Shown: positions 13,607 to 33,759, counted from the stretch's first letter. The stretch: 38,368 nucleotides of DNA from Lachnospiraceae bacterium (GCA_028695945.1 JAQVIB010000001.1:1-38368), one strand, 5' to 3'. Program-made: numbers and translations. The notes: a model not told the origin generated them from the letters alone.

Positions 13607-13627
13607 TCTATAATAGCATATTAAAAG

Positions 13628-16138: not shown

Positions 16139-16151
16139 ATATATCCCTACT

Positions 16152-17117: not shown

Positions 17118-17121
17118 TTTT

Positions 17122-17487
17122 TTAACTCCTCGATATAAGAATAACCCCAATACATATAACAAAAATGCCTGCAACTCTAATAGGTGTTATATTTTCAGCA
17201 AAAAAATAATATCCTACAACTGCTGATATAACATACCCAATACTTAGAAATGGGTATGCATAGCTTACATCAACCTTTGAAAGAACAATCATCCATATAA
17301 CTATACTAACACCGTAACACAGCATACTAATCCATAGAAACCAATTTGTTATCATGCTTGGTACAGCACTTATAAGTGAAGATAGCCCTCCCGAGATTTC
17401 TCCGACACCCATCATACCTTTTTTCATAGCTAACTGTGCAGAACAGTTAAGCAAAACACTAATAATAATTAAAATTATATTTCCCAT
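17122..17487 (-). CDS. Small 4-TM SMR/EamA-type protein, ArnE/ArnF-like candidate lipid-linked-sugar flippase
   Basis: 121 aa with four hydrophobic helices, the N-terminal LLNCSAQLAMKKG motif and YAYPFLSIGYV. RBS AGGAGA is present. Confidence 0.6.
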   Translation of the reverse strand: MGNIILIIISVLLNCSAQLAMKKGMMGVGEISGGLSSLISAVPSMITNWFLWISMLCYGVSIVIWMIVLSKVDVSYAYPFLSIGYVISAVVGYYFFAENITPIRVAGIFVICIGVILISRS

Positions 17488-17497
17488 TTAATTTCTC

Positions 17498-18061
17498 CTA
17501 TTGTCTTTCCCACACGCTAATATTGTTTTTTCTTATAACAAACGCCTTATCCGCTATTACAGCCAAGGGCATATCCGACTTAGAATCAGAATAAAATTCC
17601 TCTATTTCGTTTTTTTCAAATAGCATCCTGAATCTACTAACCTTTTCATCTCCATGGCAATTTTCACTATAAAAGTGACCATTTTTTTTATCAACGTCTG
17701 TTGCTATAAGAATTTTTATTTTATTCTTTTCACACATTGGTTTAAGCAAAAATATTGGTGATGCGGATATGACCACATCATTATCTTTTTTTTGTTTTAT
17801 ATACCAGTCCTTAAGCTTCCACTTTTTAAATTCCCAAAAAGCTATTACTTCATTATCTATATCTTTTATTCCATTTAAAAAGTAAAAAAAATGTTCTTTC
17901 ATTCTTCTTTTATTAATAATTTTTAATTTATACATAACAATTCCCATTACTTGAATAGGTAAGAATCTAATTAATAAAAAATTTTTCTCTAAAGAGAATA
18001 AGTAAAAATCTACTGTGCTATCCCCATCATATATTGTATTATCAAAATCATAAACATTCAT
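17498..18061 (-). CDS. HAD-IB superfamily phosphatase (the track start is GTG at 18073; ATG at 18061 with RBS GAGGA is preferred)
   Basis: The N-terminal MNVYDFDNTIYDGDST carries the DxDxT nucleophile motif. The C-terminal YSDSKSDMPL carries motif IV-like acidic residues. Confidence 0.7.
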   Translation of the reverse strand: MNVYDFDNTIYDGDSTVDFYLFSLEKNFLLIRFLPIQVMGIVMYKLKIINKRRMKEHFFYFLNGIKDIDNEVIAFWEFKKWKLKDWYIKQKKDNDVVISASPIFLLKPMCEKNKIKILIATDVDKKNGHFYSENCHGDEKVSRFRMLFEKNEIEEFYSDSKSDMPLAVIADKAFVIRKNNISVWERQ

Positions 18062-18073
18062 AGTCATCCTCAC

Positions 18074-18961
18074 TTAAAATACATTGAATAATGTAGGAAA
18101 ATATATAATTCCAATCAACATTATAATATATATACCCGCCATTACTACAAGCATTTTGTCCCCTAATATTACCTCAACAGGGTCACCAAAAGTACCTTTT
18201 TCTATATTTAAGCTATACTTCATAGATAAAAATATTATTAATGGTACTGTTAATACAAGCTTATCCGTATGATATTTAATTATTATATCAGAATCAACAG
18301 CCCATAATGAATAAAATACAATTGCTAATGACATTGACATATACATGTTTTTATCCAGAAAACTATGATTATAATGTTTCAGCACATTCCTTGTGCTAGT
18401 ATTTTCTCCCAACCTTACTATTTCATTGCGCCTCTTTCCAAAACCCATATAAAATGAAACACTCATTACAGTAAGATATACCCATTGTGACACGCCTGAA
18501 TTTATAATTGTTGCACCATATAAAACACGTAACAAAAAGCCAGATACAAGAATTGCGATGTCTATTATTGGATAATTCTTCAACCCACAACTGTAAAATA
18601 CATTTATAACTAAATATATTAATAGTAAACTAAGGCTTTTAAAACTCCTATTTGCAAATATATCTATACCAACCGCAACAATGAAAATAATTATTGAAAT
18701 ATAGATAGCTTTTTTTATACTCACTCGACCAGAAGCTAAAGGCCTATCTTTTTTCTTCTCATGCTGCCTATCTGCATCTATATCTCTGATATCATTAATT
18801 ATGTACACTACTGAAGATATAAGCGAAAATGATACAAATCCCAATAATACTCGTATAAATAAATTTACATTAAACAAATTCATTGTAAAAAACAAAGAAA
18901 CACAAACCAACCCATTTTTTATATAATGTTTTGGTCTTAAAAGTTTAATAATATCTTTCAT
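18074..18961 (-). CDS. UbiA-superfamily polyprenyl-phosphate phosphoribosyltransferase-like protein (DPPR synthase-like)
   Basis: 295 aa with about 9 TM helices. Asp-rich motif YIINDIRDIDADRQHEKKKDRPLASGRVS and second motif GFGKRRNEI, which matches my recollection of the Rv3806c-type family. It lies within a glycan locus. Confidence 0.7.
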   Translation of the reverse strand: MKDIIKLLRPKHYIKNGLVCVSLFFTMNLFNVNLFIRVLLGFVSFSLISSVVYIINDIRDIDADRQHEKKKDRPLASGRVSIKKAIYISIIIFIVAVGIDIFANRSFKSLSLLLIYLVINVFYSCGLKNYPIIDIAILVSGFLLRVLYGATIINSGVSQWVYLTVMSVSFYMGFGKRRNEIVRLGENTSTRNVLKHYNHSFLDKNMYMSMSLAIVFYSLWAVDSDIIIKYHTDKLVLTVPLIIFLSMKYSLNIEKGTFGDPVEVILGDKMLVVMAGIYIIMLIGIIYFPTLFNVF

Positions 18962-18995
18962 CTTTTCTCCTACATTCTATAAAATATACATTATG

Positions 18996-19589
18996 TTATT
19001 CTTCTGGTGGATATAAAAATCTGTTGTCAATAGGAAATACCTTCGCAACAAGTCGGAACGAATCAACAAGAAAACAACCCTTTTCAGTAATCTGATACTT
19101 GTCACCATCCTGCCTTATAGAACCGGTAATAAGTTGCTCATCAAAACGTCTTTGCATTGCTTCATAATCATCCATATATACATCAAGAAAATTCTGTGTT
19201 ATTTCTTCCTCAGTAAAAGCCGTATCCGGATTTTGTGCCATATGCGATAATATATACACAGATATTGAACGGTCAATCGCAACTGTTACTAATGATAAAA
19301 ACGCCATATTTAAGCAAAGAGCAACACACATCGCCAATGCAATATCTCTAACCGTAATTTTGATGAAATTGTTGTATTTAGCAAACAATACAACTAAAAC
19401 AAACATAACTATTCCCACAACTATTAAAAGCTTTGTTGCCCTATAAAAATAAACATTTAAACTCGCAAACAACGGTGTTCTAAAAGAAAGAGCATATAAT
19501 GCTGTACATATTATAAATACAACAAGATAAAATACGCAATACTTTAATCCTTCTTTAACTAAGTTTATGATACTTTTTTTATTTCCCAT
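18996..19589 (-). CDS. Hypothetical membrane protein with 4 TM helices and a soluble C-terminal domain (track start 19628; ATG at 19589 with AAGGAG RBS is preferred)
   Basis: The hydrophobic N-terminal half is followed by AQNPDTAFTEEEITQNFLDVYMDDYEAMQRRFDEQLITGSIRQDGDKYQITEKG. I do not recognise a family. Confidence 0.5.
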   Translation of the reverse strand: MGNKKSIINLVKEGLKYCVFYLVVFIICTALYALSFRTPLFASLNVYFYRATKLLIVVGIVMFVLVVLFAKYNNFIKITVRDIALAMCVALCLNMAFLSLVTVAIDRSISVYILSHMAQNPDTAFTEEEITQNFLDVYMDDYEAMQRRFDEQLITGSIRQDGDKYQITEKGCFLVDSFRLVAKVFPIDNRFLYPPEE

Positions 19590-19666
19590 AAGTTTCTCCT
19601 TATACATTAAAAATTTTTTATTAATCATAACTTACATTACTTTTTTCTTTTACCCTACAATTAATT

Positions 19667-21697
19667 TCAATTCTTTATATTCTTTATATTCTTATCTTTT
19701 AATGCCCTAGTCATAAATATACAACTTAAACCAATAAACGAAATATTTAACGGGAAGGCTGCTGACAGATACAAAGATGTTATCGCATAATATGCACTTA
19801 TATGTGTGTAAGAGACTCCAGCTATAAGTACAAGCATGCTTCCTGCCAAACCAGTGAGAATCAACCATTCATCTACCATCTTTGATTTTTTATATTTTAT
19901 AAGTGTATATATTATATAGATAGTTAATAGAACATATCCCATATAACCAACTATAAAAGCTATAAATCCCAACTTATGATACGGAGTAGTTATTGTATTT
20001 ATTAATTTTATCTTATTCTGATTAGTACTTGCAATTGTATCTTCTGCTTTTGTAATTTTCATATTATCAATATTACAAATCGTATCTCCTGTATTAAATC
20101 CATAAATATTATTACTTTCATCAACTCCAATCTCTTGAATAGTCTTTCCGTCTACTTGAAATACCAGCTTGTACTCCTCAACCTCATCTATATATAAATT
20201 TTCTGAAAATCTACACTTTTGGGCATTTTCGAGCCTTAGCCCTAAGCTCTTACTAAAATAACTAGATATATCTGGGCTATCCACTTTTTTAAATTCTTTA
20301 ATAAAATCATCGTTTTTATACAATAAAACCTTAGTTTCTCTATTCCCATCATTGCATAAAAACCAACCTGAAATATCAATCCGCGTTTTACTTGGATAAA
20401 TTGCAAAGCTTCTGGATATATTCTCAAATATCCTTATTTTATTCTCATCACCCACACTTTGAATTAACTGTGTATCACCTACATCATTTTTAGCAATAAA
20501 CATATATGCCTGCCCCATTGCCGGAAAAATTTCACTTATATATTTGTATTTGAAGGGACTCATTAATGCAGATGGCATTGAAACCCCCTCTCTTTTTTCT
20601 AATTTACCATTTTCCAACGCTGTTTCTATTTCATCAGCTGCATCTCTATAAAACTCATCAGCCTTTATAGGATCTGCATAATAACCATTTGCATAAACAA
20701 CATCTCTCAGACACCAAAAAAACCATCCATCCTTAATCTGACCATCTAACTCTCCATCTGTTGCATCCCAACCGCCACCATAGTTTGAATCTAACGTTTC
20801 TTTTAAAGATGCAAACGTTGGGCTCACTTCATATATCCTGTCAATTGTGCTTTTAGGAACAGACGTTCTATATATATCTTCTGCTGGTTGAATTCTATAT
20901 ATGTCTTTTATTAATCTTGGAAAATTGCCCTGATTAAGCTCGTTATAAATGTAAATACCATATTTGTTATAATTTATGACAGATATCGATGCAGAAAATA
21001 AAATAAATATTAATAATGGAATAATTGAGATACAACTTCTTTGTATAACTAATTTAATATTAAAAACATTATTATCCAATTTATATGTAATTATTGTAAT
21101 ACTAATTACCGCTAATACTAATGGCATAACCCATATTCCATCTTCTCTTGTATGCCACAAAGTTGCAAGTGCAAAGCCTGCCCCTATTGCCCATTTTATA
21201 AAATCTTTTGTCTTACCATTTCTGCTAAAGTACATCCCAAATAAACAACCTGAAAGAAATAATATCTGTGCTGGTGTTATATTACACCTATACACCCTTA
21301 AAAATGTATTTGTGGCTGTTGTTATTGGTGCAAAAAATAGAACTGTAAATATAAATGCTTTTAAATAGTCATTTTTTAGTACTGTTTTAATACCAAATAT
21401 AAATACAATACATGAAAGTGCGTAAAAAATAGTTTGAAGAATTGGTAATGGTATATTTAGTAAATAACCCGTTGACAAAAAGAGTGGAAAGAACACACCC
21501 TTTATAAATGTCATTTGAGAATACATCCCAAGCCAGTTCCCCTCCAAAATATTCTTTGCCATATCCACCATAAGAAAATCGTCATGTGCAGCAAATGCCA
21601 CAGAATATATTGGTAATCCGCCAACAATAATCAATTTAAAAATTATTAGCGCAATAATGTAAAAATATAGACGTTTTCTATTAAAAGAATCATTCAT
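19667..21697 (-). CDS. Large polytopic protein, candidate GT-C-fold (ArnT/PMT/YfhO-like) extracytoplasmic glycosyltransferase (track start 21793; ATG at 21697 with GGAGG RBS is preferred)
   Basis: About 10 N-terminal TM helices with an acidic first loop (VAFAAHDDFLMVD), a ~300-aa hydrophilic domain and 3 C-terminal TM helices. The call rests on this topology and on genomic context only. Confidence 0.5.
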   Translation of the reverse strand: MNDSFNRKRLYFYIIALIIFKLIIVGGLPIYSVAFAAHDDFLMVDMAKNILEGNWLGMYSQMTFIKGVFFPLFLSTGYLLNIPLPILQTIFYALSCIVFIFGIKTVLKNDYLKAFIFTVLFFAPITTATNTFLRVYRCNITPAQILFLSGCLFGMYFSRNGKTKDFIKWAIGAGFALATLWHTREDGIWVMPLVLAVISITIITYKLDNNVFNIKLVIQRSCISIIPLLIFILFSASISVINYNKYGIYIYNELNQGNFPRLIKDIYRIQPAEDIYRTSVPKSTIDRIYEVSPTFASLKETLDSNYGGGWDATDGELDGQIKDGWFFWCLRDVVYANGYYADPIKADEFYRDAADEIETALENGKLEKREGVSMPSALMSPFKYKYISEIFPAMGQAYMFIAKNDVGDTQLIQSVGDENKIRIFENISRSFAIYPSKTRIDISGWFLCNDGNRETKVLLYKNDDFIKEFKKVDSPDISSYFSKSLGLRLENAQKCRFSENLYIDEVEEYKLVFQVDGKTIQEIGVDESNNIYGFNTGDTICNIDNMKITKAEDTIASTNQNKIKLINTITTPYHKLGFIAFIVGYMGYVLLTIYIIYTLIKYKKSKMVDEWLILTGLAGSMLVLIAGVSYTHISAYYAITSLYLSAAFPLNISFIGLSCIFMTRALKDKNIKNIKN

Positions 21698-21768
21698 TGT
21701 TTGCCTCCAAGAAAAGTAAAAACCATTAATAATTATATTGAAGTTTTTGTCCTTCCGTAAGTAAAAAT

Positions 21769-22692
21769 TTACCCTTTGTCCTCCATTATCCATTCAATTA
21801 TATGTCTTATTCCCTTTTTTAAATCCGTTTTAGGTACCCAGAATAACTCTTTAAAAGAACTTTCTACATTAAGCAATGAGCTTTCAACGTCACACTTCCT
21901 CTTTTCTTTATACACTATATCTTTAAAATTTTTCCCAGATGTATCCTGAATTATATCTATTACTTCATTTAGGGAATGAACACACCCTGAACCAATATTG
22001 AAAATATGCTCTTTTCCATTATAGTCAAGTACCTTTTTAAATGCAGTAATTAAGTCATCCATATATATATAATCTCTAACACTTGTGCCATTACCCAAAA
22101 CCATAATAGGCTCATCAGCTATTAATCTGTGTATAAATATAGGAATAACTCCCTGTGGTTTATTTATATCTTGTCCAACACCATAAGGATTTGTTATTCT
22201 CATTATTTTATAATTCAAACCATAAAACTTTCCATAAAACTCTAAATAGCCCTCAATAACCTTTTTCTGTACACCATAGCTGCACTGAGGAGTAAGTTTA
22301 TCATTTACAAAATTTTCTTTTTCACCTGTCTCTCCATAAACCGTGCCTCCTGATGAGGCAAATATTATTTCATTTACACCACATTTAACCATATCTTCTA
22401 AAAGTCTAATTGTAGGAATTACATTTTTACTTATTTCATCAATAATAATACTTGTATCATCCGTAGGAGTTGTGGTACTTATAAGATGAATTACCTTATC
22501 AACTCCCTGAAGTATTGGTTTAAAATCGCAGATTGTAGAAAACTCTCTGTTTATAAAAGTAAAATTTTTAATATCTTCTAACTCTTTTGGTAAATGCCTA
22601 CCAAGAGCAATTATTTTATATTCTTGACAAATACTTTTACATAAAGGCTTACCCATAAATCCTGTTGCACCTAAAATTAAGCATGTTTTCAT
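21769..22692 (-). CDS. NAD-dependent epimerase/dehydratase (UDP-sugar 4-epimerase-like extended SDR)
   Basis: MKTCLILGATGFMGKPL Rossmann motif, SSGGTVYG, and YGVQK catalytic YxxxK. Confidence 0.8.
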   Translation of the reverse strand: MKTCLILGATGFMGKPLCKSICQEYKIIALGRHLPKELEDIKNFTFINREFSTICDFKPILQGVDKVIHLISTTTPTDDTSIIIDEISKNVIPTIRLLEDMVKCGVNEIIFASSGGTVYGETGEKENFVNDKLTPQCSYGVQKKVIEGYLEFYGKFYGLNYKIMRITNPYGVGQDINKPQGVIPIFIHRLIADEPIMVLGNGTSVRDYIYMDDLITAFKKVLDYNGKEHIFNIGSGCVHSLNEVIDIIQDTSGKNFKDIVYKEKRKCDVESSLLNVESSFKELFWVPKTDLKKGIRHIIEWIMEDKG

Positions 22693-22714
22693 TTATTACT
22701 CCTTGTTTTTATCC

Positions 22715-25700
22715 TTAAACCCCTTTAGCAAACAACTTTACTTTGTCTATCATCTCAGCATCAGAAATCTTAGATGATAAAATACCACAATATGCACAAG
22801 CCTGTTTTAATAAAGAATCCCTTATGCTACTTTTTAAATTTTCGTCTATTGCACTATATTCTTTTATTACATAAGTCAATAAATTTTCCTTTGCATAATT
22901 TTTTAAATGACTAATTACTGCTGTATCAATGCCTAGATTTTCCTGTATTTTTACAATACTGTTATAAAAATCATTAATTATTTTATCATCATACTCTTTC
23001 ATTAATAAATCAGACACATTTTTTTTATTAATATATTCATCCAATAAAGTAACCAGCTCTTCACAATATTCTGTTACATTGCTTTTGCTAATGTTTTCCT
23101 TAATATCTTCAAAAATATAGTTAAGTGCAATAAATACTGTATTAATCTGGCTAAAAATGTTCTTATCCTGCTCGCAATTATTAGTCTTACCTATTATCTT
23201 GTCCATAGCAAAACCCTCAGCAATTGAACGCTTTAAATAATATCCTGCATTTCTATTATGCCCATGTACTATAGTCACAGAAGACATAATTTTCACTTTA
23301 TTATCATCTTTTATTAGTCTAAGCCCTAAATCCAAATCCTCTGCAAAGCTAAATCTATATTTATACTTACGCCATATATCTGCCTTTATAGCTGTCGATA
23401 CATCATTTAATGAAGCATTCTTTCTCTGTACAAGTGGCGTCATATCTCTTGAATAAAATCCAATTCTATCAACTTGTCCATCTAAAACAAAATTTGAATG
23501 AGTTTTTGAAGCAACACGATAATATAAATCAGTTCCGTCTGGGCATGTTTCCATACAGCTTACGGCCGCTATACCTTCATTCATAATTGGTGCTATGATT
23601 TTTGCAACCCAATATTCATCTGTTGGCATGGCGTCTTGAGTCATAAAAATAAGTATGTCTCCGCTTGCATTTTCTCCTCCTAAATTTCTAGCAAAAGAAT
23701 GTGAAAATTGTTTCTGTGTTATATGAATTAATTTGTTCGACTTTTTAAACACTTCCGCACTATCAATATTTTCACTCTCGGAATCAACAAGTATTACCTC
23801 AACAGCCTTTATTCCTTTCTGTCTATGAAGTAAATCTACTGTGAATTCAAAATCCTTCTGAGGATTATATACAGGAAAAATAACAGAAACTACAACATCA
23901 AAATGTAGATTATCTGTTTTGTGAAGCAATTTATCAATTGTATCATTTACATTAACCATAAATGCATTATATGAAAACATTTGTTCATACGCATATCTTG
24001 CGTTATCTCGCATAATTGCCATTTCGTTATTATTATAATTTTCAGCTATTTTTTCCATACAGTTTACAAGTTCTGTAACCGAATTTTCTCTATAAATTAA
24101 TCCTGCATTAAATTTACTAATAATACTTGCTGAACCTGTATTTTCAGAACATATAATTGACTTTGAGAGTGCCATTGCCTCTGTTACTACCACTGGCATA
24201 GGGTCATCTTTCGACGTACAAACTAAACAATCAATCTGAGCATACAATTTAAAAAGATCATCTCTTGAAACTTGTTCAATATGCTTTGAATTGTTTAGGT
24301 ATTTACCTAGAACCTTTTCAACACTTTTATTTATATTTTCATCAAAAGGCTTGCCTATAAATAAAAAGTAACAAGATTTTCTTATCCTATTATCCATTGT
24401 TTCAATTGCCCTAACAAAAATATCTTGAGCTTTACGCTCTTCAAAACTTCCAATAATCGCAAAAACAAATTTGTCCCTCAAATTCACTATATCATTCTTA
24501 TTTTTTGTATAATCATTTAATATATCTGGCAAATAGTATAATAATGTATCCGCTTTGTAGTTAGGAAAAAACCTTTTTAAAACATGTTTAGCATAGTTCC
24601 CCCCGCACACTACGTTTACATTTTGAGGAAGTTCATTAGGCATAACAGCTAAAAATCCACCTTTTTCATACGAATATATAGCTTCATGTATCCACCATAA
24701 TACAGGAATATCCATATTTGCAAGCTTATTAATTACGTAATACGTTACTATCGTGCAGGCAACAATAAAGCTAATTTTTTGTTGAATCTCTTCCAAAAAT
24801 GTTGAACTAGCTAAGGTGTCAGCTATAATCAAAGGTATTCCTTCTTTATTTATCTCTTCTTTAAGCAGTCCATCAACCGGAGACAATATAATAGGCAAAT
24901 AGCCAATATTTTTTAGTATTCTTGCAAAATAGAATAGAACAATTGGTGCTCCTGTAATAGTTAATTCATGGCTTACCAAAATAACTGTCTTACTTTTATT
25001 ATTATGTGCAAAATCAATTTTCGTAGCCCCGAAAACCTCATAATTATACTTTGAGCATAAATCTAAAATAGATATATCTTCATCATCTGTTTCAGTTAAA
25101 CTTTCAGTAATGCTGGTATATAAATTAATTTCGTTTACCTTTTTCTCAAATAAGTATTTTTTAGTTTTTTTGAAAGTTATTTCAGGACCATTATGAATTA
25201 TACTACCAACGCCCTTTTTAATCAATCGTGTATATTTTGTCCGATTAAATAATTCTTTAATTGTATCGGCGCTTACTCTCAACGGGTAAGTTAATCTCCA
25301 ATGAGTAGAATTCTTAATTGCTACATAAGCAATTTCTGCATTTTGAAGCTTTGCAAATAGTTCTTCATTAATCATCATTTTATTTGCATATTCTAGCTTA
25401 AAACGTTCAATTTCATTGTTTAATTTATCAATCACTAAATCGTTCTGTTTAATACTCAAAGTTAACTCATCTATAACAACATTGTTATTCTCTATTTCCT
25501 CTTTTTGACCCTGTAATTCTTTATCTTTATTTTCTATTTTCTCTTTTTGATTCTGTAATTCTTTATCTTTATTCTCTATTTCCTCTTTTTGATTCCGTAA
25601 TTCTTTATCTTTATTCTCTATTTCCTCTTTTTGATTCCGTAATTCTTTATCTTTATTCTCTATTTCCTCTTTTTGATTTATTATTTCTTCTGACTGTTTT

Positions 25701-26896
25701 GCTATTAGAACTTCTTGGTTATTTAACTTATATTTCATGTCTTGCAGTGTGCTTAACAAAGATGTTATTTCATCGTTTGCCATTTTATTCTTTTCACTCC
25801 AAATACAATCACAATTATTGTAAATCTCCAAAAAATTTTTATTTAGTTCTATATAATCATATTTTATTGTTATATCACTAATATCTTTAACCTCTGGTAT
25901 TATAATTTGTGGATACTCATTAATAAAAATAAAATCCTCACCAGTTTTTTCCCCATTAATAGTGTATTTATTAAACATTGTTGAATTACAATATACTTTT
26001 AATTCCTTTACAATGCAATTTTTACCTTCTATTAAATCAACTCTTATATTTGCCACACCATCGGGCACCTTAAATACAATTTTTTCTCCTGTAAAATTAC
26101 CTTTTATTATTTCTATATTTTCTTCTGAAAACCCATTTCCATAGTCTAAATAAATTTTTGTTATATTCTCTGGTATATCGCCTATATTTTTCTGTATTAT
26201 GATGTCATTATCAATAAAATACTGTTTTTTTACAATTGTAAATATAAACTGATAAACTGTTCCCAGCCTTTTTGCCTTTATAATATTAATAGTATTTTCA
26301 GGCAACAAATAATCATACTCTTTAAATTCAGATGTACCTAATAAATTATACGTTGCATCATAAATTTCAATTATATAATCACAACTTTCTATCATTTCAC
26401 ATAGTGAAAAAAATGAAAAAAAATGTATATGCGTATTATCTAGTAGCCCAATCTGCCTATAATGAAATTTATTTGTATATAACTCAGCTAAAATTCCGCT
26501 ATGTGCTACATTTGGAACAGATAAAATTACTCTTCCATCATTTTTAAGCAATCTGTTTGCATTTTGTAATACTTGTTCTGGATTTTTTAAATGCTCAAGG
26601 ACATCCGCAAAAATTATATAATCAAATTCAATATCCTTAAATTCTTTCGCCCACAAAAGTTCTTCAACGTCGCAATGTATCCCATCTTTTGCATACTTTA
26701 ATGCCTTATTAAAGGATTGCTTATCTATCTCAACAATATAAACATCACAATCAAGAACTTCTTTCATATACCTAGTCATATTACCATTTGCAGGCCCAAA
26801 TTCAAGTACTGTAGAACCTGCCTTAATCTGTTTTAAAATAATCGTGTGAGAATCCTTTTCATTTATATCTATTTTAAAATCATATTTTTCTGACAT
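22715..26896 (-). CDS. Giant multidomain glycan synthase: class I SAM methyltransferase, beta-rich domain, ~155-aa coiled coil, GT4 (GT-B), GT2 (GT-A) and a C-terminal helical domain
   Basis: Methyltransferase motifs VLEFGPANG and DYIIFADVLEHLKNP (aa 30-110). Coiled coil at aa ~378-533 (nt 25316-25783). GT4 at nt ~23930-24991, with HELTITGAPIVL and the ExxxxxxxE-type VVTEAMALSKSIICSE. GT2 at nt ~23210-23902, with VSVIFPVYNPQKDF, MTQDAMP and FAEDLDLGLRL. The preferred start is ATG at 26896 (RBS GGGGTGA); the track start is 26914. Confidence 0.8.
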   Translation of the reverse strand: MSEKYDFKIDINEKDSHTIILKQIKAGSTVLEFGPANGNMTRYMKEVLDCDVYIVEIDKQSFNKALKYAKDGIHCDVEELLWAKEFKDIEFDYIIFADVLEHLKNPEQVLQNANRLLKNDGRVILSVPNVAHSGILAELYTNKFHYRQIGLLDNTHIHFFSFFSLCEMIESCDYIIEIYDATYNLLGTSEFKEYDYLLPENTINIIKAKRLGTVYQFIFTIVKKQYFIDNDIIIQKNIGDIPENITKIYLDYGNGFSEENIEIIKGNFTGEKIVFKVPDGVANIRVDLIEGKNCIVKELKVYCNSTMFNKYTINGEKTGEDFIFINEYPQIIIPEVKDISDITIKYDYIELNKNFLEIYNNCDCIWSEKNKMANDEITSLLSTLQDMKYKLNNQEVLIAKQSEEIINQKEEIENKDKELRNQKEEIENKDKELRNQKEEIENKDKELQNQKEKIENKDKELQGQKEEIENNNVVIDELTLSIKQNDLVIDKLNNEIERFKLEYANKMMINEELFAKLQNAEIAYVAIKNSTHWRLTYPLRVSADTIKELFNRTKYTRLIKKGVGSIIHNGPEITFKKTKKYLFEKKVNEINLYTSITESLTETDDEDISILDLCSKYNYEVFGATKIDFAHNNKSKTVILVSHELTITGAPIVLFYFARILKNIGYLPIILSPVDGLLKEEINKEGIPLIIADTLASSTFLEEIQQKISFIVACTIVTYYVINKLANMDIPVLWWIHEAIYSYEKGGFLAVMPNELPQNVNVVCGGNYAKHVLKRFFPNYKADTLLYYLPDILNDYTKNKNDIVNLRDKFVFAIIGSFEERKAQDIFVRAIETMDNRIRKSCYFLFIGKPFDENINKSVEKVLGKYLNNSKHIEQVSRDDLFKLYAQIDCLVCTSKDDPMPVVVTEAMALSKSIICSENTGSASIISKFNAGLIYRENSVTELVNCMEKIAENYNNNEMAIMRDNARYAYEQMFSYNAFMVNVNDTIDKLLHKTDNLHFDVVVSVIFPVYNPQKDFEFTVDLLHRQKGIKAVEVILVDSESENIDSAEVFKKSNKLIHITQKQFSHSFARNLGGENASGDILIFMTQDAMPTDEYWVAKIIAPIMNEGIAAVSCMETCPDGTDLYYRVASKTHSNFVLDGQVDRIGFYSRDMTPLVQRKNASLNDVSTAIKADIWRKYKYRFSFAEDLDLGLRLIKDDNKVKIMSSVTIVHGHNRNAGYYLKRSIAEGFAMDKIIGKTNNCEQDKNIFSQINTVFIALNYIFEDIKENISKSNVTEYCEELVTLLDEYINKKNVSDLLMKEYDDKIINDFYNSIVKIQENLGIDTAVISHLKNYAKENLLTYVIKEYSAIDENLKSSIRDSLLKQACAYCGILSSKISDAEMIDKVKLFAKGV
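25485..25678 (-). repeat. In-frame 42-nt tandem repeat, 4.6 copies, encoding NQKEEIENKDKELR heptad-rich units inside the coiled coil
   Basis: The units are 25485-25526, 25527-25568, 25569-25610, 25611-25652 and a partial 25653-25678. Units 3 and 4 are identical and the others differ at a few positions. Confidence 0.9.
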
Positions 26897-28124
26897 TAAT
26901 ATCACCCCATTCATGTGGAATTATATATCTTCCTTCTCCCACATACTTTGTATTAATAGTAATCTCTTTTATCATGGTCTTATAGTCAATATTTACACTT
27001 GCTGTTTCATCCATAAGGGCAACATCAAAATAGTATTTTCCTCCTACGGAAAGTATTCCTTTTACATATTGAATAAAAAATCTATTTCTGCCATATTTCC
27101 ATGGTATATTAACATTATCTAATAGAGTATTTAATCCACAAACATAATCATCATCCATACCTCTAATTGCAACCCCCAATACAGGATTATCAACATTTTC
27201 ATCGTATACATCGTACACTACTTCAGCCGTTATTCGTTCATTAAATTCAAATTCATTTACCTCCTTTCCTTTACTATTCCATAAATGAAAAGCAATAATC
27301 TGTGCCATATTATCACCTGGTGCAAATTCTATTTCATCATCTGACTGTTTTGGGATTTCTTCTTGTTCTTCATCATCAAATGCGACTTCTCCAATCTTTA
27401 AGAAGTCAAGATATTTATCCGTAATTCTATCAACATCTCCATCCGCCATTACAACCCCTTTATTAAGCCATAATGCTCTCGAGCAAAACCTTTTAATTGC
27501 ATTCACATCATGAGAAACAAACAAAACTGTAGTACCACTAAACATCATTTCTTTCATTTTCTTCATACACTTAAGTTTAAAACGTGTATCACCAACAGAT
27601 AATGCTTCATCAACAATAAGTATTTCAGGCTCAACATTTATTGCAACTGCAAATGCAAGACGGGCAAACATTCCACTTGAATAAGTCTTTACCGGCTGAT
27701 TAATAAATTCACCTATATCAGCAAAATTTAGAATTTCATCCAGTTTACTGTCAATTTCATTTCTGTTAAGCCCCATCATAGTTCCGCTTAAATAAATATT
27801 TTCAATTCCTGTGTAATCAGGATTAAATCCCGTTCCAAGTTCAAGTAATGCTGAAACCTTTCCCCTTACTTCTACTTCTCCTTCTGTAGGATTTAAAACC
27901 CCTGTAATTATTTTTAATAGCGTTGATTTTCCAGAACCATTAGTACCAATTATACCAACATTTTCTCCTTGTCTAATACTAAACGAAATATTTTTCAAAG
28001 CATAAAACTCTTTGGAATACTTTTTTTTAGAAACTGAAATAGATTCTTTTAAGCGATCTACAGGTTTATCATATATTCTATAAATTTTAATTAGATTTTT
28101 AATACTTATTATTGATTCTTCCAT
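26880..28124 (-). CDS. Polysaccharide ABC exporter ATP-binding protein (Wzt/TagH-like) with C-terminal Wzt_C-like carbohydrate-binding domain
   Basis: Walker A GTNGSGKST, signature YSSGMFARLAFA, Walker B ILIVDEALSVGD. This is followed by an acidic linker and a ~170-aa beta-rich C-terminal domain (nt ~26883-27395). The preferred start is ATG at 28124 (MEESIISIKNL); the track start is 28157. Confidence 0.85.
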   Translation of the reverse strand: MEESIISIKNLIKIYRIYDKPVDRLKESISVSKKKYSKEFYALKNISFSIRQGENVGIIGTNGSGKSTLLKIITGVLNPTEGEVEVRGKVSALLELGTGFNPDYTGIENIYLSGTMMGLNRNEIDSKLDEILNFADIGEFINQPVKTYSSGMFARLAFAVAINVEPEILIVDEALSVGDTRFKLKCMKKMKEMMFSGTTVLFVSHDVNAIKRFCSRALWLNKGVVMADGDVDRITDKYLDFLKIGEVAFDDEEQEEIPKQSDDEIEFAPGDNMAQIIAFHLWNSKGKEVNEFEFNERITAEVVYDVYDENVDNPVLGVAIRGMDDDYVCGLNTLLDNVNIPWKYGRNRFFIQYVKGILSVGGKYYFDVALMDETASVNIDYKTMIKEITINTKYVGEGRYIIPHEWGDINVRKI

Positions 28125-28140
28125 TCTTTCCCTCTCTAAT

Positions 28141-29538
28141 CTATAAAACATCCGCAAAATGCACTTTTAATCTTCTAAACAAGCTAATTCCTGCAAAAAA
28201 CAAAAATGCTATTATAAACCAAAAATAAATTGTCTGACTAAAGCTTGGAAAAACAGGTTCACTCCCAATCATACAATTTCTATAACCCTGCACAATATAA
28301 AACATAGGATTAAGCTTGAAAAATTTAATAAGCTTTATTGGTAATATATTTATATCCCACATAATAGGCGTAAGCCACATCATAATTTGTAATATAATAT
28401 TAATAATTTGGGTTAAATCTCTAAAAAATATAACCACAGATGCCGTTATAAATGAAATGCCGATAATAAGCACAATCATGCATATCATATAGTAAAAAAT
28501 TCCAACCATTCTTAATGCAGGGAAAACACCATTTATTGTGTACAATCCTACCAAAAAAGCCACAAAAAATAAATGAACAAAAAATGCTGAAAGTATTTTA
28601 ACTAGTGGCAAAATATCTATTTTAAATACAACCTTTTTTACTAGATAGCTGTATTCCATAAAGCAGTTTGTTGCACTGCTCCATGCATCCGAAAAGAAAA
28701 ACCACGGAACAATTCCAGCAGTAAGCCATAACGCAAATGGTACATCACTTACAGGTGAACTTTTTAAACCAAATGTAAAAACAAACCAGAATATTAATAT
28801 AGTACAAATAGGCTGGACAAACGCCCACAATATGCCAAAATATGACCCTGCAAATTTGACTTTAAAATCATTTAGTGCTAATGACAAAAGCAGTTTTCTA
28901 TCATTAAATACGCTCTTTGCTAAAAGATATACATCTTCTAAATATACAAATTTATATATAACAATTAAAAATACAAATGCTATAAAAAATGCGGTGATAA
29001 AATAATAAATATTATTTATAGGCTCTAAGTAATCAAGCGTCAATAAAATATATGAATCATTTCCTTCTGTTCTAAAATTAATAAAACCATTGTTTTCAGA
29101 AACTACTATCTGGTTTAATTTGATTTCCTGAGAATTGATTAATGAAGACAACTCCTCAGAAGAGAAAAAACATTTTTTATTTCCTTTTAAAATTTCTAAT
29201 GACGTAATACTGAAATTAATTCCTGACTCACTTCCAAAATCTATTCTAAGCTCTTGAGCTTCTTGAGGAAAAACAATCGAAATATCCTTAAATGTTTTAT
29301 TTTTAGATGTAGAAACTTCGGCATTTAAAGAATGTGGCTCATCAAAATTAAAATTGCCTTTTCCTTGGGTATAAAAAAGCTGTAGAGTTTCATTTTTATC
29401 AGAATAAATATTTATTTTAACCTTTCCTACGCTGTAATTTGGAATTGCTACAACACTTAAGGATAAAAACATAACAACAAATAAAAAAAAGTAAATAAAA
29501 ATTCTTTTTAAGTTTAATTTTTTCATATATTCTCCCAT
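28141..29538 (-). CDS. ABC-2 type polysaccharide exporter permease (Wzm/TagG-like) with an unusual ~190-aa N-terminal extension (alternative start 29526)
   Basis: The canonical Wzm core starts near LALNDFKVKFAGSYFGILWAFVQP and has 6 TM helices. It is preceded by one TM helix, a ~140-aa hydrophilic domain and a second TM helix. The ATG at 29538 overlaps the rfbD stop (TGATG). Confidence 0.8.
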   Translation of the reverse strand: MGEYMKKLNLKRIFIYFFLFVVMFLSLSVVAIPNYSVGKVKINIYSDKNETLQLFYTQGKGNFNFDEPHSLNAEVSTSKNKTFKDISIVFPQEAQELRIDFGSESGINFSITSLEILKGNKKCFFSSEELSSLINSQEIKLNQIVVSENNGFINFRTEGNDSYILLTLDYLEPINNIYYFITAFFIAFVFLIVIYKFVYLEDVYLLAKSVFNDRKLLLSLALNDFKVKFAGSYFGILWAFVQPICTILIFWFVFTFGLKSSPVSDVPFALWLTAGIVPWFFFSDAWSSATNCFMEYSYLVKKVVFKIDILPLVKILSAFFVHLFFVAFLVGLYTINGVFPALRMVGIFYYMICMIVLIIGISFITASVVIFFRDLTQIINIILQIMMWLTPIMWDINILPIKLIKFFKLNPMFYIVQGYRNCMIGSEPVFPSFSQTIYFWFIIAFLFFAGISLFRRLKVHFADVL

Positions 29539-30383
29539 CAGCCATCAATCTCTTTTAGAAACCTTTTCAAAGCATCCTTCCAATGAGCTAGCCTTTGAAA
29601 TTTTGCCTCATCCAAAATTTCTTTATTTAGTCTTGAATTTAATGGCCTTACAGTCTTCGTAGGATATTCCGTGGTTTTTATAAAATTAACCTTTGTTTTA
29701 TAATTTGATAATCTAAATATCTCCTCAGCAAACTCTGCCCACGAACAAAACCCTTCATTTGTTGCGTGATATATTCCGTATTTATCTGTCATCACCATAT
29801 CACACAGCAATTTAGCCAAATCTGCTGTATAGGTTGGTGAACCAACCTGGTCACATACAACACTTATTTCACTGCGTTCTTTTCCTAGTCTAAGCATAGT
29901 CTTAATAAAATTATTTCCATTTTTCCCAAATACCCATGAAATTCTAACAATAAAATACTTGTCTAAAATCTTCTTAACAGTATTTTCTCCTTCAAGCTTC
30001 GTTTTTCCGTATACACCTAAAGGTCCTGTTTCATCATTCACATCGTAAGCCTTATTGCCGGTACCTGAGAAAACATAATCAGTACTAATATAAATCATTT
30101 TAGCATCGACAGCCTCGCAAGCTTTTGCAATATTTTCTGTTCCATATACATTTACCATATGGCACAACCCGGGTTCATCCTCTGCTTTATCTACCGCAGT
30201 GTATGCTGCACAATGAATAACCGCCTTCGGCTTATAACTTGATATATATTCCATAACGTCATTTTCTTTTGTTATATCAAATTCCCTTCTTCCAACCCCA
30301 GTACACTCAATATTTCTGCTTTTAAGAACCTTAACAACATCATATCCAAGTTGTCCATTTACACCTGTAACAAGTATTCTCAT
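29538..30383 (-). CDS. rfbD: dTDP-4-dehydrorhamnose reductase (the track ORF extends to a TTG at 30419)
   Basis: MRILVTGVNGQLGYDV..., CAAYTAVDKAE, YGKTKLEGE, SPTYTADLA. Confidence 0.9.
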   Translation of the reverse strand: MRILVTGVNGQLGYDVVKVLKSRNIECTGVGRREFDITKENDVMEYISSYKPKAVIHCAAYTAVDKAEDEPGLCHMVNVYGTENIAKACEAVDAKMIYISTDYVFSGTGNKAYDVNDETGPLGVYGKTKLEGENTVKKILDKYFIVRISWVFGKNGNNFIKTMLRLGKERSEISVVCDQVGSPTYTADLAKLLCDMVMTDKYGIYHATNEGFCSWAEFAEEIFRLSNYKTKVNFIKTTEYPTKTVRPLNSRLNKEILDEAKFQRLAHWKDALKRFLKEIDG

Positions 30384-30396
30384 AAAAACATCCTTT

Positions 30397-31323
30397 TTAA
30401 ATATATAAAATATAGCCAATATTTCTTACAATTCCATTTTTAAAAGTTTTGATTTTAAAAATGTTGTATATTTTTACAGCCTTGCTTTTTTTAGGTAACA
30501 TATAATACGTTTTTAGCAATTTTTTTTGTCGCACATTAAGCAATTCTTTATAGGATTTATAAAAAGCTTCAGCCTGTCTATATGTATCTGTTAAAGCCCT
30601 TTTAATTGTTTTAAATTTTACCATGTATAAAATAATAAATTTTAATGACCTCATATTTCTTACGCCAACGGAATTATTATTATGCTGCCTATACAAAATA
30701 GTGGGTTCATTCACATGGTGAATACTTCCGAATGCCGCTGCTATAATTGCAAGCCACCAGTCGTGCATAACCATATAGCCTTCAGGCTTTATTATTAATT
30801 CCCCCAGTGCCCTGTTATACATAACAGTACATCCTGTAACAATATTTTGTATAAGTAAGTTATTCAAACATGTTTTGTTATAATCAGCATACATAAATTT
30901 TTTAAATGATGGAGCAATTATATTTAAATTGTCATCAACAATCTTCAAATCCGAATGAACTAATATTGGCTTCCTGCCACCGTTATTTTTCTCTAGCTGC
31001 TGCATTTTTTTCAGCGTAATTTCAATTTTTTTAGGAAGCCAAACATCATCTTGGTCACATAGCATAATATAGTCATCTTTATGATTCAACATCATTTTCA
31101 TAAAGTTATACTTTGCACTTCCTGAGTTTTTCTCATTTCTTGTAACCTTAATTTTTTTGGGGTATTTTGCCTCAAAAAGTTTTTCAATCTCATAAGTTTT
31201 ATCCGTAGAACAGTCATCATTAATATAAAGGATAAAGTCCCCATACGTCTGATTTATGATAGACTCTATTTGCTGGGCAATATATTTTTCACCATTATAA
31301 GAAGCCAATAAAATTGAAATCAT
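30397..31323 (-). CDS. GT2-family glycosyltransferase (rhamnosyltransferase-like)
   Basis: MISILLASYNGEKYIAQQIESIINQTY...YINDDCSTDKT and the DQDDVW DxD motif. Confidence 0.85.
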   Translation of the reverse strand: MISILLASYNGEKYIAQQIESIINQTYGDFILYINDDCSTDKTYEIEKLFEAKYPKKIKVTRNEKNSGSAKYNFMKMMLNHKDDYIMLCDQDDVWLPKKIEITLKKMQQLEKNNGGRKPILVHSDLKIVDDNLNIIAPSFKKFMYADYNKTCLNNLLIQNIVTGCTVMYNRALGELIIKPEGYMVMHDWWLAIIAAAFGSIHHVNEPTILYRQHNNNSVGVRNMRSLKFIILYMVKFKTIKRALTDTYRQAEAFYKSYKELLNVRQKKLLKTYYMLPKKSKAVKIYNIFKIKTFKNGIVRNIGYILYI

Positions 31324-31329
31324 AACTCA

Positions 31330-32154
31330 TTATCCTTGCTTTCTCAAAATTTTCTGATAAAACCATTTTGTTGCACACGTTGGCATAAAACACAGAATGA
31401 CCTGTAATAAGGAAAGTAATAAAAAATCCCAAAAGGAGGAGAATCCTCTTCTCCAATTCAAAAACCGAACATATATAAATCCTTTTGTATTGTTCCAGTT
31501 TTTTCTCCTCTGAAAGGTATCATCTGTTAATCGGTAGTATAAAAGGCTTTCAGGAATATTTTCGCATACTGCTCCCCTCATAATAAGCCTAACTGCCAAA
31601 TCATAGTCCTCGCATCTTTTCATTTTTCTGTAACCGCCACATGCAATAACCTTTGACTTTTTATACATAACCGTGGGATTATTAAAGGGGTTTCTTCTTT
31701 TTGCATACCTTTTTATCTCGTGGTTTGTTAAGGGAACTTTTCTAACAGAAGCCACATTTTCCGTGCTACAGACAAATTCCTTGGCATAACTTCCTATATA
31801 ATCAAGTGCAGGATTTTGCTGGAATTTCAGCATCTGAATTTCACACCTTTTACGCACTGAAATATCATCTGAATCCATTCTTGCAATCAACTCATTTTTA
31901 CAAAACTTTAACCCCTTGTTTAGTGCATTCCAAACTCCAAAATTTTCCTTTATTCTAACAATGGTAAATAATCCTTCATTGTCTTTTTCAAAATGGCTTA
32001 TTATACTATTATGAGTATCCTTTAATTCCCCGTCACAAACAATTACTATTTGGCTTGGCCTTAACGTTTGGTTCAGCATGCTTTCTACTGCTGCTCTAAA
32101 ATATTCAGGCTCATCATTTATATATACAGCCATCAATACTGAATATTGGTTCAA
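31330..32154 (-). CDS. GT2-family glycosyltransferase with a C-terminal membrane-associated tail
   Basis: YSVLMAVYINDEPEYFRAAVESMLNQT, the VCDGEL region and an RMDSDD DxD motif. The C-terminus is hydrophobic (FWDFLLLSLLQVILCFMP). Confidence 0.85.
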   Translation of the reverse strand: MNQYSVLMAVYINDEPEYFRAAVESMLNQTLRPSQIVIVCDGELKDTHNSIISHFEKDNEGLFTIVRIKENFGVWNALNKGLKFCKNELIARMDSDDISVRKRCEIQMLKFQQNPALDYIGSYAKEFVCSTENVASVRKVPLTNHEIKRYAKRRNPFNNPTVMYKKSKVIACGGYRKMKRCEDYDLAVRLIMRGAVCENIPESLLYYRLTDDTFQRRKNWNNTKGFIYVRFLNWRRGFSSFWDFLLLSLLQVILCFMPTCATKWFYQKILRKQG

Positions 32155-32165
32155 GACTTTACTCC

Positions 32166-33745: not shown

Positions 33746-33759
33746 GATTTCAAATCCTC

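Follow-up and report, generated by a model that had tools for sequence, protein, structure and literature searches.

Among the closest described systems is WsaE of Geobacillus stearothermophilus NRS 2004/3a, which belongs to S-layer glycan synthesis (PMC2943079, PMC9415975). WsaE adds a 2-O-methyl cap to the S-layer rhamnan, its N-terminal domain methylating the terminal rhamnose, and the genes wzm, wzt and wsaE overlap (PMC2943079). ORF6 of Klebsiella O7, which contains a methyltransferase, a kinase, a CBM, a coiled coil and two glycosyltransferases (GTs), has been shown experimentally to be a terminator-polymerase, and that paper describes the coiled coil as the marker of such terminators (PMC11231755). 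WbbB of Klebsiella O12 and Raoultella terrigena holds a terminator, a coiled-coil ruler and a two-GT polymerase in one chain, its terminator being a beta-Kdo glycosyltransferase (GT99). WbdD of E. coli O9a/O8 works with a separate polymerase, WbdA (PMC3482155).

The window analysed here, a whole stretch of 38,368 nucleotides from a Lachnospiraceae bacterium, an uncultured Clostridia-type organism of gut or environmental origin, encodes a 1393-aa protein within a 17-gene rml/wzm/wzt operon. We read this protein, with a probability of roughly 70%, as a single-chain machine for the assembly of an ABC-exported cell-surface glycan, in which a methyl-capping terminator, a helical ruler and a GT4-GT2 polymerase are joined. 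The combination of polymerase, ruler and methyl-capping terminator had been proposed in an earlier note on this DNA, and it is supported by homology to a WsaE orthologue, conserved wzm/wzt synteny, variability in stalk length and intact SAM motifs. The operon genes that bear on this reading are as follows.

29538 to 34638, minus strand: rmlA, rmlC, rmlB, two small GT2 genes and rmlD, the upstream operon genes (Pfam)
30397 to 31323 and 31330 to 32154, minus strand: the two small upstream GT2 genes, candidate adaptor transferases (Pfam)
28141 to 29538, minus strand: wzm, ABC-2 permease (Pfam ABC2_membrane at aa 219-423)
28939 to 29538, minus strand: unusual N-terminal extension of Wzm, about 200 aa, in which a beta-rich domain lies between two TM helices (hydropathy)
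26880 to 28157, minus strand: wzt, ABC ATPase with a C-terminal Wzt_C domain (26952 to 27317), proposed cap reader (Pfam)
22715 to 26896, minus strand: whole gene of the 1393-aa candidate terminator-ruler-polymerase (stop codon 22715 to 22717; ORF list and choice of start)
19667 to 22692, minus strand: downstream partners of this gene, conserved with the GT4-GT2 polymerase type
21769 to 22692, minus strand: SDR epimerase (Pfam Epimerase)
19667 to 21793, minus strand: 708-aa polytopic membrane protein, about 10 TM segments (hydropathy)

Counted from its first ATG, the ORF runs from 22715 to 26914 on the minus strand (1399 aa). The ATG at 26896 was chosen as the likely start because it follows a ribosome-binding site, GGGGTGA, the N-termini of relatives read M-x-K-Y-D, and the database copy has 1393 aa; the gene coordinates thus agree with those given earlier. 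Its reported position downstream of Wzm/Wzt is correct along the direction of transcription, the gene being on the minus strand, and its first 17 nt are shared with the 3' end of wzt. The same three-gene block as here trails the homologue in two related loci (L004 and L002), and the 708-aa membrane protein has no match in Pfam, NCBIfam or PDB.

From N to C terminus, the protein comprises a SAM methyltransferase, a beta-sandwich, a long helix, a W-x-x-T-x-P-x-R junction, a GT4, a GT2 and a helical tail. This order can be read directly from the sequence and bears out the earlier claim, with Pfam matches, the AlphaFold model (all models here are monomers) and motifs conserved in relatives in agreement; by E-values and conservation, the domain calls and their retention in relatives are far beyond chance. 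Residues called invariant are so in 15 orthologues.

26207 to 26896, minus strand: class I SAM methyltransferase (aa 1-230), proposed capping enzyme (Pfam, AlphaFold, motifs)
25847 to 26167, minus strand: beta-sandwich (aa 244-350), possible glycan-binding module (AlphaFold strands, pLDDT 81-96)
25313 to 25765, minus strand: continuous helix of 151 residues (aa 378-528), proposed ruler (AlphaFold, pLDDT about 88-91)
25485 to 25678, minus strand: 42-bp tandem repeat of 4.6 copies inside the stalk, encoding NQKEEIENKDKELR (two heptads) (TRF)
25097 to 25312, minus strand: junction (aa 529-600, net charge +8), putative membrane-proximal stalk base (conserved motif and basic amphipathic helices)
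23924 to 25039, minus strand: GT4, GT-B retaining-type (aa ~620-991) (Pfam, AlphaFold, Foldseek)
23249 to 23902, minus strand: GT2, GT-A inverting-type (aa ~999-1216) (Pfam Glycos_transf_2, E 6.5e-13)
22718 to 23248, minus strand: C-terminal alpha-helical bundle (aa 1217-1393) (AlphaFold helices)

The methyltransferase is recognised by Methyltransf_23 (E 2.4e-19), MetW (2.4e-14) and also Methyltransf_11, is modelled at a pLDDT of ~98 over aa 1-230, and has PDB entry 3cc8 as its best structural match (TM 0.81, Foldseek). Its SAM-binding residues, on which the earlier proposal depended, are intact and invariant: E32-x-G34-x3-G38 (SAM motif I), E56 at 18 positions further on, and D98. The beta-sandwich that follows, with the signature Y-x-D-x-G-x-G-F-x-E ... 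I-R-x-D ... D-P-Q, is kept in 58 of 60 aligned relatives; aa 244-350 have no sequence match in Pfam or PDB, and a glycan-binding role is possible. No kinase domain was detected in the protein by Pfam or AlphaFold, and the adjoining methyltransferase and beta-sandwich exclude the space for one, so direct O-methylation would be expected rather than a methyl-phosphate cap.

In the C-terminal half, the GT4 is identified by Glyco_trans_4_5 (E 2.3e-18) and Glycos_transf_1 (E 2.9e-23), with D898...E906 invariant, and the GT2 carries invariant D1038, Q1087-D1088-A1089 and E1186-D-L-D1189. The terminal bundle has conserved K1364, G1371 and G1392. Fold neighbours of the GT4 are HepE, WaaG, PglA and BshA (TM 0.7-0.8, Foldseek). 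The earlier suggestion of a rhamnan-type polymer is therefore not established, as the GT4 resembles retaining UDP-hexose enzymes (HepE, WaaG, PglA) and not the rhamnosyltransferase WsaF, which argues against a pure rhamnan; judged from these modelled folds, a Rha-containing heteropolymer would be at least as likely. Alternatively, one GT domain alone could belong to the polymerase, which a separate GT2 of the operon would complete, while the second domain would transfer just one residue, as an adaptor or at the terminus. The two additional GT2 genes upstream would allow this, and a stand-alone GT completes the polymerase in Klebsiella O7 (PMC11231755), as WsaF does in Geobacillus (PMC2943079). 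However, the GT4 and GT2 always occur together in the 25 closest relatives, and the small GT2 genes are ~75% conserved in a sister locus (L080; 75-92% aa identity across the upstream operon genes, 29538 to 34638) despite a quite different polymerase there, which speaks for a primer or adaptor function common to both loci and not for one in the repeat unit. We consider this division of labour improbable, though it fares best among the alternatives, and favour a polymerase formed by the GT4 and GT2 of the single chain.

Judged by sequence comparison, the closest kin of the 1393-aa protein are the WsaE-type proteins of Bacillota. The comparison with WsaE was made through an orthologue in Aneurinibacillus terranovensis (L028), where wzm, wzt with a CBD, a 1069-aa MT-helix-GT2-GT2 gene and a WsaF orthologue follow one another; the 1069-aa protein is assigned as the WsaE orthologue from its synteny with the WsaF orthologue (PDB 2x0d, E 1.7e-154). 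The methyltransferases of the two proteins are 42% identical across 270 aa (E 4e-63), the stalk end and W motif 33% (E 9e-6), and the GT2 matches the last C-terminal GT2 of the orthologue weakly (21%, E 7e-8). Both WsaE and the 1393-aa protein come from a Bacillota host, have an N-terminal methyltransferase and C-terminal GTs, are accompanied by rml genes, and are encoded by a gene overlapping wzt in the order wzm, wzt, terminator. They differ in their polymerase modules, since WsaE-type proteins depend on WsaF in addition to their own two GT2 rhamnosyltransferase domains, whereas in the 1393-aa protein a GT4 precedes a single GT2 (Pfam) and a helical tail. Its helix is also ~2x longer, with the W motif at residue 533 versus ~442 in the WsaE orthologue.

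Set beside it by description, ORF6 of Klebsiella pneumoniae O7 has nearly the same layout (methyltransferase, beta-fold module, coiled coil and two C-terminal GTs), each of the two genes lies in an rml/wzm/wzt cluster, and the beta-sandwich lies where ORF6 has its Ig-like CBM. ORF6 differs in having a kinase, a methyl-phosphate cap and two GT2 modules and in serving Gram-negative LPS. Like WbbB, the 1393-aa protein is a single chain in which a terminating enzyme is followed by an extended helix and then by two GT modules, but its terminator is a methyltransferase, and no Kdo-transferase domain was found in it by Pfam or AlphaFold. Unlike O9a WbdD, it has no kinase, and its polymerase domains are fused in cis. 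The earlier description of the protein as WbbB-like and WbdD-like holds for its logic, but no link to either by sequence or fold rank was found: WbbB gave no sequence match by phmmer (E<=0.01) or among the best 60 of 115 profile matches, and WbdD was absent from the phmmer matches (E<=0.01), from the best 60 of 115 profile matches (the best 60 all at E<=1.5e-5, the 115 at E<=1) and from the 50 highest-ranked Foldseek matches of the methyltransferase model. A further relative occurs in Enterococcus faecalis (L075), where wzm and wzt with a CBD precede a 1085-aa protein that opens with the same methyltransferase and beta module (36% identical across aa 4-271) and starts 3 nt from the end of the Wzt CBD. 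In this protein of the EPA locus, downstream of epaM (EF2181-type), the helical region is short and the GT domains are GT2, in contrast to the long stalk and GT4 plus GT2 seen here. EF2181 and EF2180 are reported to resemble the C-terminus of WsaE (PMC7188991); that paper makes no mention of a methyl cap or ruler role for the enterococcal protein.

The long heptad-rich segment noted earlier is predicted by AlphaFold to be a single helix of 151 residues, ~22 nm in length if fully helical. Its heptad register is constant from ~366 to 519, with I or L at every 'a' position, one Gly and no Pro; database matches are weak and SMC-like. The 42-bp repeat within it (TRF score 346, 95% matches) has identical units 1 and 2, with unit 3 off by 1 nt and unit 4 by 3 nt. 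In several lineages, tandem repeats with heptad-multiple periods (14, 28, 35 and 42) have arisen independently. Across orthologues, the stretch between the beta domain and the W motif is 113 to 202 aa long, and the linker after the W motif 78 to 107 aa; in these sequences the stalk alone is variable in length, and the catalytic domains stay fixed. The stalk ends in THWRLTYPLR, as claimed earlier, at residues 531-540, with W533, P538 and R540 invariant and the family form S-x-x-W-[KR]-x-T-x-P-x-R shared by 24 of the 25 family members. The charge and hydrophobic moment of aa 529-600 suggest a membrane-proximal base.

The stalk is probably an oligomeric coiled coil. Its ends have canonical hydrophobic a/d positions, but in the repeat part in mid-stalk the 'd' position is polar (Q/K) and 86% of the residues are charged or polar, so that the stalk could instead be a single stable helix. 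A terminator-polymerase with kinetic control of product length, through the relative speeds at which it polymerises and caps, and with the helix serving as a flexible or single-helix spacer and not as a ruler, would be in keeping with the central 70 residues, which resemble single stable helices (a single hydrophobic core position in each heptad, with 16 i/i+4 opposite-charge pairs), and length in E. coli O9a is also affected by polymerase-site occupancy on WbdD (PMC11231755). Against this stand the canonical stalk ends and the length changes and internal repeats of relatives, which are heptad multiples that keep the register, a feature irrelevant to a mere flexible tether; moreover, a rigid single helix would still be a ruler. 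Purely kinetic control ranks behind a divided polymerase in our estimation, and measurement by the helix remains the preferred explanation.

As stated earlier, Wzt carries a C-terminal carbohydrate-binding-type domain (ABC_tran 3.7e-26; Wzt_C 1e-11, scoring 45.5 bits where the cut-off is 30.4), and its best PDB match, Aquifex aeolicus Wzt (3.8e-78), aligns to residue 381, into the C-terminal domain. In a survey of 79 genome loci containing relatives, in which Wzt and Wzm were sought within 8 kb, Wzt was present in 64 and Wzm in 61; locus L003 has neither within that distance. The wzm-wzt-terminator order is the same in 30 related loci, and the Wzt C-terminal domain ends at most 100 nt from the methyltransferase start in 30 loci and at most 40 nt in 29. 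Complete Wzt proteins of at least 368 aa account for 54 of 63 (86%), while nine of the 63 loci have a short Wzt that lacks the C-terminal domain, including L004, the closest full-length relative. In L080, identity decays stepwise from the Wzt NBD (82%) through the CBD (63%), methyltransferase (60%) and beta domain (36%) to the stalk (20%), which is 66 aa shorter there, and the polymerase is GT2+GT2 instead. By analogy, the C-terminal domain of Wzt may recognise the capped end.

Least probable of all, in our view, is that the methyltransferase, instead of capping the chain, modifies sugars within every repeat unit or acts on another substrate, while the helix only oligomerises or scaffolds and does not measure length: WsaE methylation in vitro is independent of chain length (PMC2943079), some Wzt proteins lack the C-terminal domain as above, and similarity of methyltransferase and CBD showed no co-variation over 38 loci (rho 0.02; simple test), but a site across a 151-residue helix from the GTs would be odd for an enzyme acting in every cycle, the Wzt extension is present in most linked proteins, length variation is confined to the helix, and the characterised proteins of such layout are terminators (PMC2943079, PMC11231755).

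The terminator-ruler-polymerase reading can be set out as follows, and for its cap, ruler function, oligomeric state and sugar composition we infer the steps from homologues and domain families. The glycan would be built on a polyprenol carrier at the cytoplasmic membrane face, with a primer or adaptor made by the two small upstream GT2 enzymes. The C-terminal GT4 and GT2, given their families and intact catalytic motifs, would then extend the chain in alternation, yielding a product that probably contains L-rhamnose, since rmlABCD is in the operon, and probably a second, alpha-linked hexose. The basic amphipathic segment after W-x-x-T-x-P-x-R may anchor the stalk base and polymerase at the membrane, and the helix, probably an oligomeric coiled coil, would hold the methyltransferase and beta-sandwich ~22 nm away, where only chains grown to about that length could reach the active site. 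O-methylation of the non-reducing terminal sugar would stop extension, as suggested by homology to the WsaE module and by the precedents of WbdD, WbbB and ORF6. Recognition of the capped end by Wzt would, following family precedent, license export via Wzm/Wzt, after which the downstream lipid-linked-donor genes would probably add pentofuranose decoration.

The design, taken in the earlier note as that of a Gram-positive protein, is not new, because WsaE (PMC2943079) and Klebsiella O7 ORF6 (PMC11231755) precede it; the 1393-aa protein is a further example of a known enzyme design, not a new principle. New here are the near-perfect 42-bp tandem repeat in the stalk and, found by hhalign, a beta-sandwich on the N-terminal extension of Wzm that is related to that of the 1393-aa protein.

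The locus probably brings together, in an uncultured Lachnospirales member, all elements of the cap and coiled-coil-ruler strategy known from Gram-negative O antigens. The gene at its centre falls on the minus strand in an ORF listed as 22715..26914; a GGGGTGA ribosome-binding site lies five bases before its second ATG, at 26896. Starting there gives the N-terminus MSEKYD, as in all relatives, and the length of the 1393-aa database copy, with the start overlapping the wzt stop by 17 nt. Scans of the operon for promoters and terminators gave counts not above those of shuffled sequence. The gene sits in the following arrangement:

About 34638 down to 15188, minus strand: single long operon in which genes abut or overlap
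Operon front, minus strand, in order: rmlA, rmlC, rmlB, two small GT2 genes, rmlD, wzm, wzt, the gene in question
Part 3' of the gene, minus strand: SDR epimerase, 708-aa membrane protein, 210-aa membrane protein, then the UbiA-family gene
Operon end after the UbiA-family gene, minus strand: HAD phosphatase, small SMR-like protein, second SDR, flippase-like protein

The domain order proposed from the sequence alone (methyltransferase, beta-rich domain, coiled coil, GT4, GT2, helical tail) is borne out by both Pfam and AlphaFold. Pfam recognizes a class I methyltransferase (E 2.4e-19), both halves of a GT4 enzyme (E 2.3e-18 and 2.9e-23) and a GT2 enzyme (E 6.5e-13). Two AlphaFold models, built from alignments of relatives (mean pLDDT 83 and 86), place the methyltransferase at residues 1-230, a beta-sandwich at 244-350 and one unbroken helix at 378-528. 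Three shorter helices then reach residue 600, and the chain continues with GT-B and GT-A domains, in that order, and ends in a C-terminal helical bundle. From ~366 to 519 the heptad register does not shift, and every 'a' position holds I or L. The THWRLTYPLR-type motif said to close the coiled coil lies exactly at the end of the long helix; it is found in 24 of 25 family members, and its W533, P538 and R540 are invariant in 15/15 orthologues. The catalytic sites are just as well kept across these 15 orthologues, which are only 30-34% identical to the window protein: invariant are the SAM-binding motif E32-F-G34-x-x-x-G38 with the acidic E56 18 positions later, whose integrity the earlier note had wanted checked, the F-A-D98-V-L-E-H-L strand of the methyltransferase, the D898...E906 pair of GT4, and D1038, Q-D1088-A and E-D1187-L-D1189 of GT2. 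Because Pfam and AlphaFold show only a 107-residue beta-sandwich between the methyltransferase and the helix, the protein lacks a kinase such as those of WbdD-O9a and Klebsiella O7 ORF6; a direct O-methyl cap, not a methyl-phosphate cap, is expected.

The export partner likewise has the C-terminal carbohydrate-binding-type domain ascribed to it: Wzt_C is matched over the curated cut-off and the alignment with the Aquifex aeolicus Wzt structure reaches into this domain. The sequence description in the earlier note thus proved correct in every item. The terminator beta-sandwich itself has no match in Pfam or among PDB sequences, and its homology to the Wzt C-terminal domain can be rejected (hhalign probability 0.7%).

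At least 497 stretches encoding relatives turned up when one genome per species was scanned, and the locus counts given here rest on the best 79 of these. A Wzt homologue lies within 8 kb in 64 of the 79 loci and a Wzm homologue in 61. The end of the Wzt C-terminal domain is at most 100 nt from the methyltransferase start in 30 loci, and no more than 40 nt in 29 of them. Among 63 complete Wzt ORFs, 54 carry a C-terminal extension, as judged by a length of at least 368 aa. Nine loci have a short Wzt, including L004, the nearest full-length relative, and another relative, L003, has no transporter genes within 8 kb. Across 38 loci, a crude test of methyltransferase against carbohydrate-binding domain similarity gave no co-variation (rho 0.02, partial r -0.16). 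In L004, a Lachnospiraceae MAG, Wzt is only 267 aa and is without the C-terminal domain, yet the terminator-ruler-polymerase protein is complete.

The ancestry of the terminator module can be traced through its relatives. In a collection of 5.8 billion proteins the window protein is a singleton; its next relative there is 40% identical and its closest full-length relatives are 29-34% identical. The earlier note likened the protein to WbbB and WbdD. A sequence or fold link to either can be rejected, both being absent from the phmmer, profile and Foldseek matches listed; what stands is the logic, which does match WbbB. The best structural neighbour of the methyltransferase, among the matches listed, is 3cc8, an uncharacterised Bacillus cereus protein. 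A closer counterpart was found in Aneurinibacillus terranovensis, where four genes in a row encode Wzm, a Wzt with C-terminal domain, a 1069-aa methyltransferase-helix-GT2-GT2 protein and a WsaF-like protein, the last matching the WsaF crystal structure end to end (E 1.7e-154). Because wzm-wzt-wsaE-wsaF is the published gene order of Geobacillus stearothermophilus (PMC2943079), the 1069-aa protein is taken as a WsaE orthologue, and WsaE was compared through it. The window protein and this orthologue are 42% identical in the methyltransferase (E 4e-63). Identity is 33% (E 9e-6) across a segment that takes in the final stretch of the helix, the W motif and the basic helices, and only 21% in one GT2. 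[quoted passage not shown] On these alignments, the terminator module belongs by descent with WsaE-type proteins of Bacillota. The N-terminal methyltransferase is also fused to GT2, RgpF, WbsX or WsaF-type domains in hundreds of proteins; the few with a source name or from GTDB genomes come mostly from Lachnospiraceae, other Clostridia, Paenibacillus and Bacillus. Related modules are present in many Bacillota, including Enterococcus faecalis, in whose EPA locus the same methyltransferase module lies directly 3' of Wzt.

In logic, the closest match to the window protein, ahead of WbbB, is Klebsiella O7 ORF6, experimentally a terminator-polymerase composed of a methyltransferase, kinase, Ig-like CBM, coiled coil and two GTs (PMC11231755). 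The window protein differs from ORF6, WbbB and WsaE in its GT4, GT2 and helical-tail polymerase, the lack of a kinase, its long repeat-built stalk and its host lineage.

Length variation in the family falls on that stalk. The 15 orthologues have 113 to 202 residues between the end of the beta-sandwich and the W motif, whereas the next linker keeps to 78-107 residues and no large gaps interrupt the alignment of the catalytic domains. In the window gene, the helix is built at its centre from a near-perfect 42-bp tandem repeat (4.6 units, 95% matches, the first two units identical in DNA) whose unit encodes NQKEEIENKDKELR, exactly two heptads. The repeats in other family members are unrelated to this one and have periods of 14, 28, 35 and 42 residues, and heptad-multiple repeats arose independently in several relatives. 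A ruler under diversifying selection would be expected to change length in this way, with the register preserved. At the helix rise of ~1.5 Å per residue, 151 residues would span roughly 22 nm and each repeat unit would add about 2 nm. A change in copy number might shift glycan length between strains in ~2 nm steps with the helix register kept; an exact scan of JGI metagenome contigs found no copy-number variants of the 42-bp repeat. The repeat region is heavily charged and its 'd' position is taken by Q or K; rather than a classical coiled coil, it might form a single stable helix.

The exporter carries a further unusual feature. Wzm is 465 aa, against the usual ~265 aa, and its extra N-terminal 200 aa (28939-29538, minus strand) comprise a beta-rich domain of ~145 aa that should face outwards, flanked by two predicted TM helices. 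The profile of the terminator beta-sandwich aligns to the extension over 95 columns (hhalign probability 76%, E 2.3e-5), compared with a probability of at most 7% in 30 column-shuffled controls; BLASTP gives a weak match (E 0.003) in a different register. The outer face of Wzm appears to carry a homologue of the uncharacterised terminator beta-sandwich. The extension is rare, with one close homologue (72% identity, in L080, a sister locus on a JGI metagenome contig) and seven weak matches among 1.84 billion representatives; these seven include a further extended Wzm and a polysaccharide acetyltransferase of the AlgX type. N-terminal extensions with a similar signature are also present in two relatives, in the Wzm ORFs of L004 (444 aa) and L013 (465 codons stop to stop). 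We know of no glycan-binding module described on both membrane sides of a Wzm/Wzt system. A combined scheme, in which slippage or recombination of the repeat would tune glycan length and the beta-sandwich with its homologue on Wzm would form a two-sided glycan-binding module, is improbable.

The sister locus L080 (JGI 3300045589, 23 kb) was compared with window 26218-34707. The operon front is the same, and identity to the window falls stepwise along it: 88-92% for the Rml proteins, about 75% for the two small GT2, 75% for Wzm, 82% for the Wzt ATPase, 63% for the Wzt C-terminal domain, 60% for the methyltransferase and 36% for the beta-sandwich. The stalk is 20% identical and 66 residues shorter. 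DNA similarity (78%) ends at window 26218, which is the end of the methyltransferase domain. Beyond it, L080 has a GT2+GT2 polymerase of the WsaE/EPA type, then YfhO, GT2 and separate methyltransferase decoration genes; its wzm is apparently split into ORFs of 342 and 73 aa. Since the rml-to-methyltransferase half is alike and the rest different, export and capping are shared while ruler and polymerase are swapped, a pattern that fits a serotype-like variable region with its switch point inside the terminator-ruler-polymerase gene. In the window, G+C is 28-32% in the variable half of the polysaccharide operon (~14000-32000) and 36-39% in the flanks. At 37405-37956, immediately upstream of the locus, is a gene for a serine recombinase (resolvase), and a recombinase also adjoins L080. 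The low G+C and the recombinase genes suggest that the locus has been exchanged horizontally.

The polymer itself had been predicted to be of rhamnan type. The rmlABCD genes in the operon and a weak link of GT2 to the WsaE GT2 do point to rhamnose. The GT4 domain, however, has retaining UDP-sugar enzymes as its fold neighbours (HepE, WaaG, PglA and BshA, TM 0.7-0.8 in Foldseek), WsaF is not among its top 50, and the epimerase and 708-aa membrane protein also follow the GT4-GT2 polymerase in two other genomes. The expected product is therefore a heteropolymer containing rhamnose, and not a pure rhamnan. Downstream, at 16152-18961 (minus strand), lies a gene set for a putative lipid-linked pentofuranose donor pathway. 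Its UbiA-family protein scores 214 bits with the NCBIfam model for decaprenyl-phosphate phosphoribosyltransferase, whose cut-off is 207, and the set also includes an HAD phosphatase, a 121-aa ArnE/F-like SMR flippase and an SDR epimerase. It matches the pathway by which Ribf/Araf side chains are added outside the cytoplasm (PMC11127046). A polytopic protein of 708 aa (19667-21793, minus strand), with no match in Pfam, NCBIfam or PDB, may be the GT-C-type transferase; however, it accompanies the GT4-GT2 polymerase in the relatives L004 and L002, both of which are without the UbiA gene.

The window protein leaves known principles unchanged. It offers a candidate explanation for the sizing of rhamnose-rich wall polysaccharides in Gram-positive bacteria, which to our knowledge is still poorly understood. 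As a compact single-protein system of cap, ruler and polymerase with a naturally modular ruler, it could be put to use in glycoengineering to set polymer length. No paper on a coiled-coil ruler in a Gram-positive rhamnan system came up in a literature search; the 2019 survey of terminator diversity (Mann, Kimber, Whitfield) may already list such fusions.

Other features surround the operon. An 864-aa protein with three C-terminal SLH domains (8325-10919, minus strand) is a candidate S-layer or wall-anchored protein; its gene is preceded and overlapped by a 381-aa ORF (10738-11883, minus strand) with a single N-terminal hydrophobic segment and no family match. Upstream of thiC (12234-13535) is a TPP riboswitch (13620-13722, minus strand; Rfam RF00059, 62.5 bits, over the gathering score). 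At the left end, nifH, nifD and nifK encode nitrogenase (621-5169, minus strand). NifD and NifK share 90%-identity clusters with, and are at least 90% identical to, proteins named from Lachnospiraceae and Anaerotignaceae MAGs, and so indicate its probable lineage; together with the SLH-domain protein they place the host among the uncultured Clostridia, and calling it Gram-positive was reasonable.
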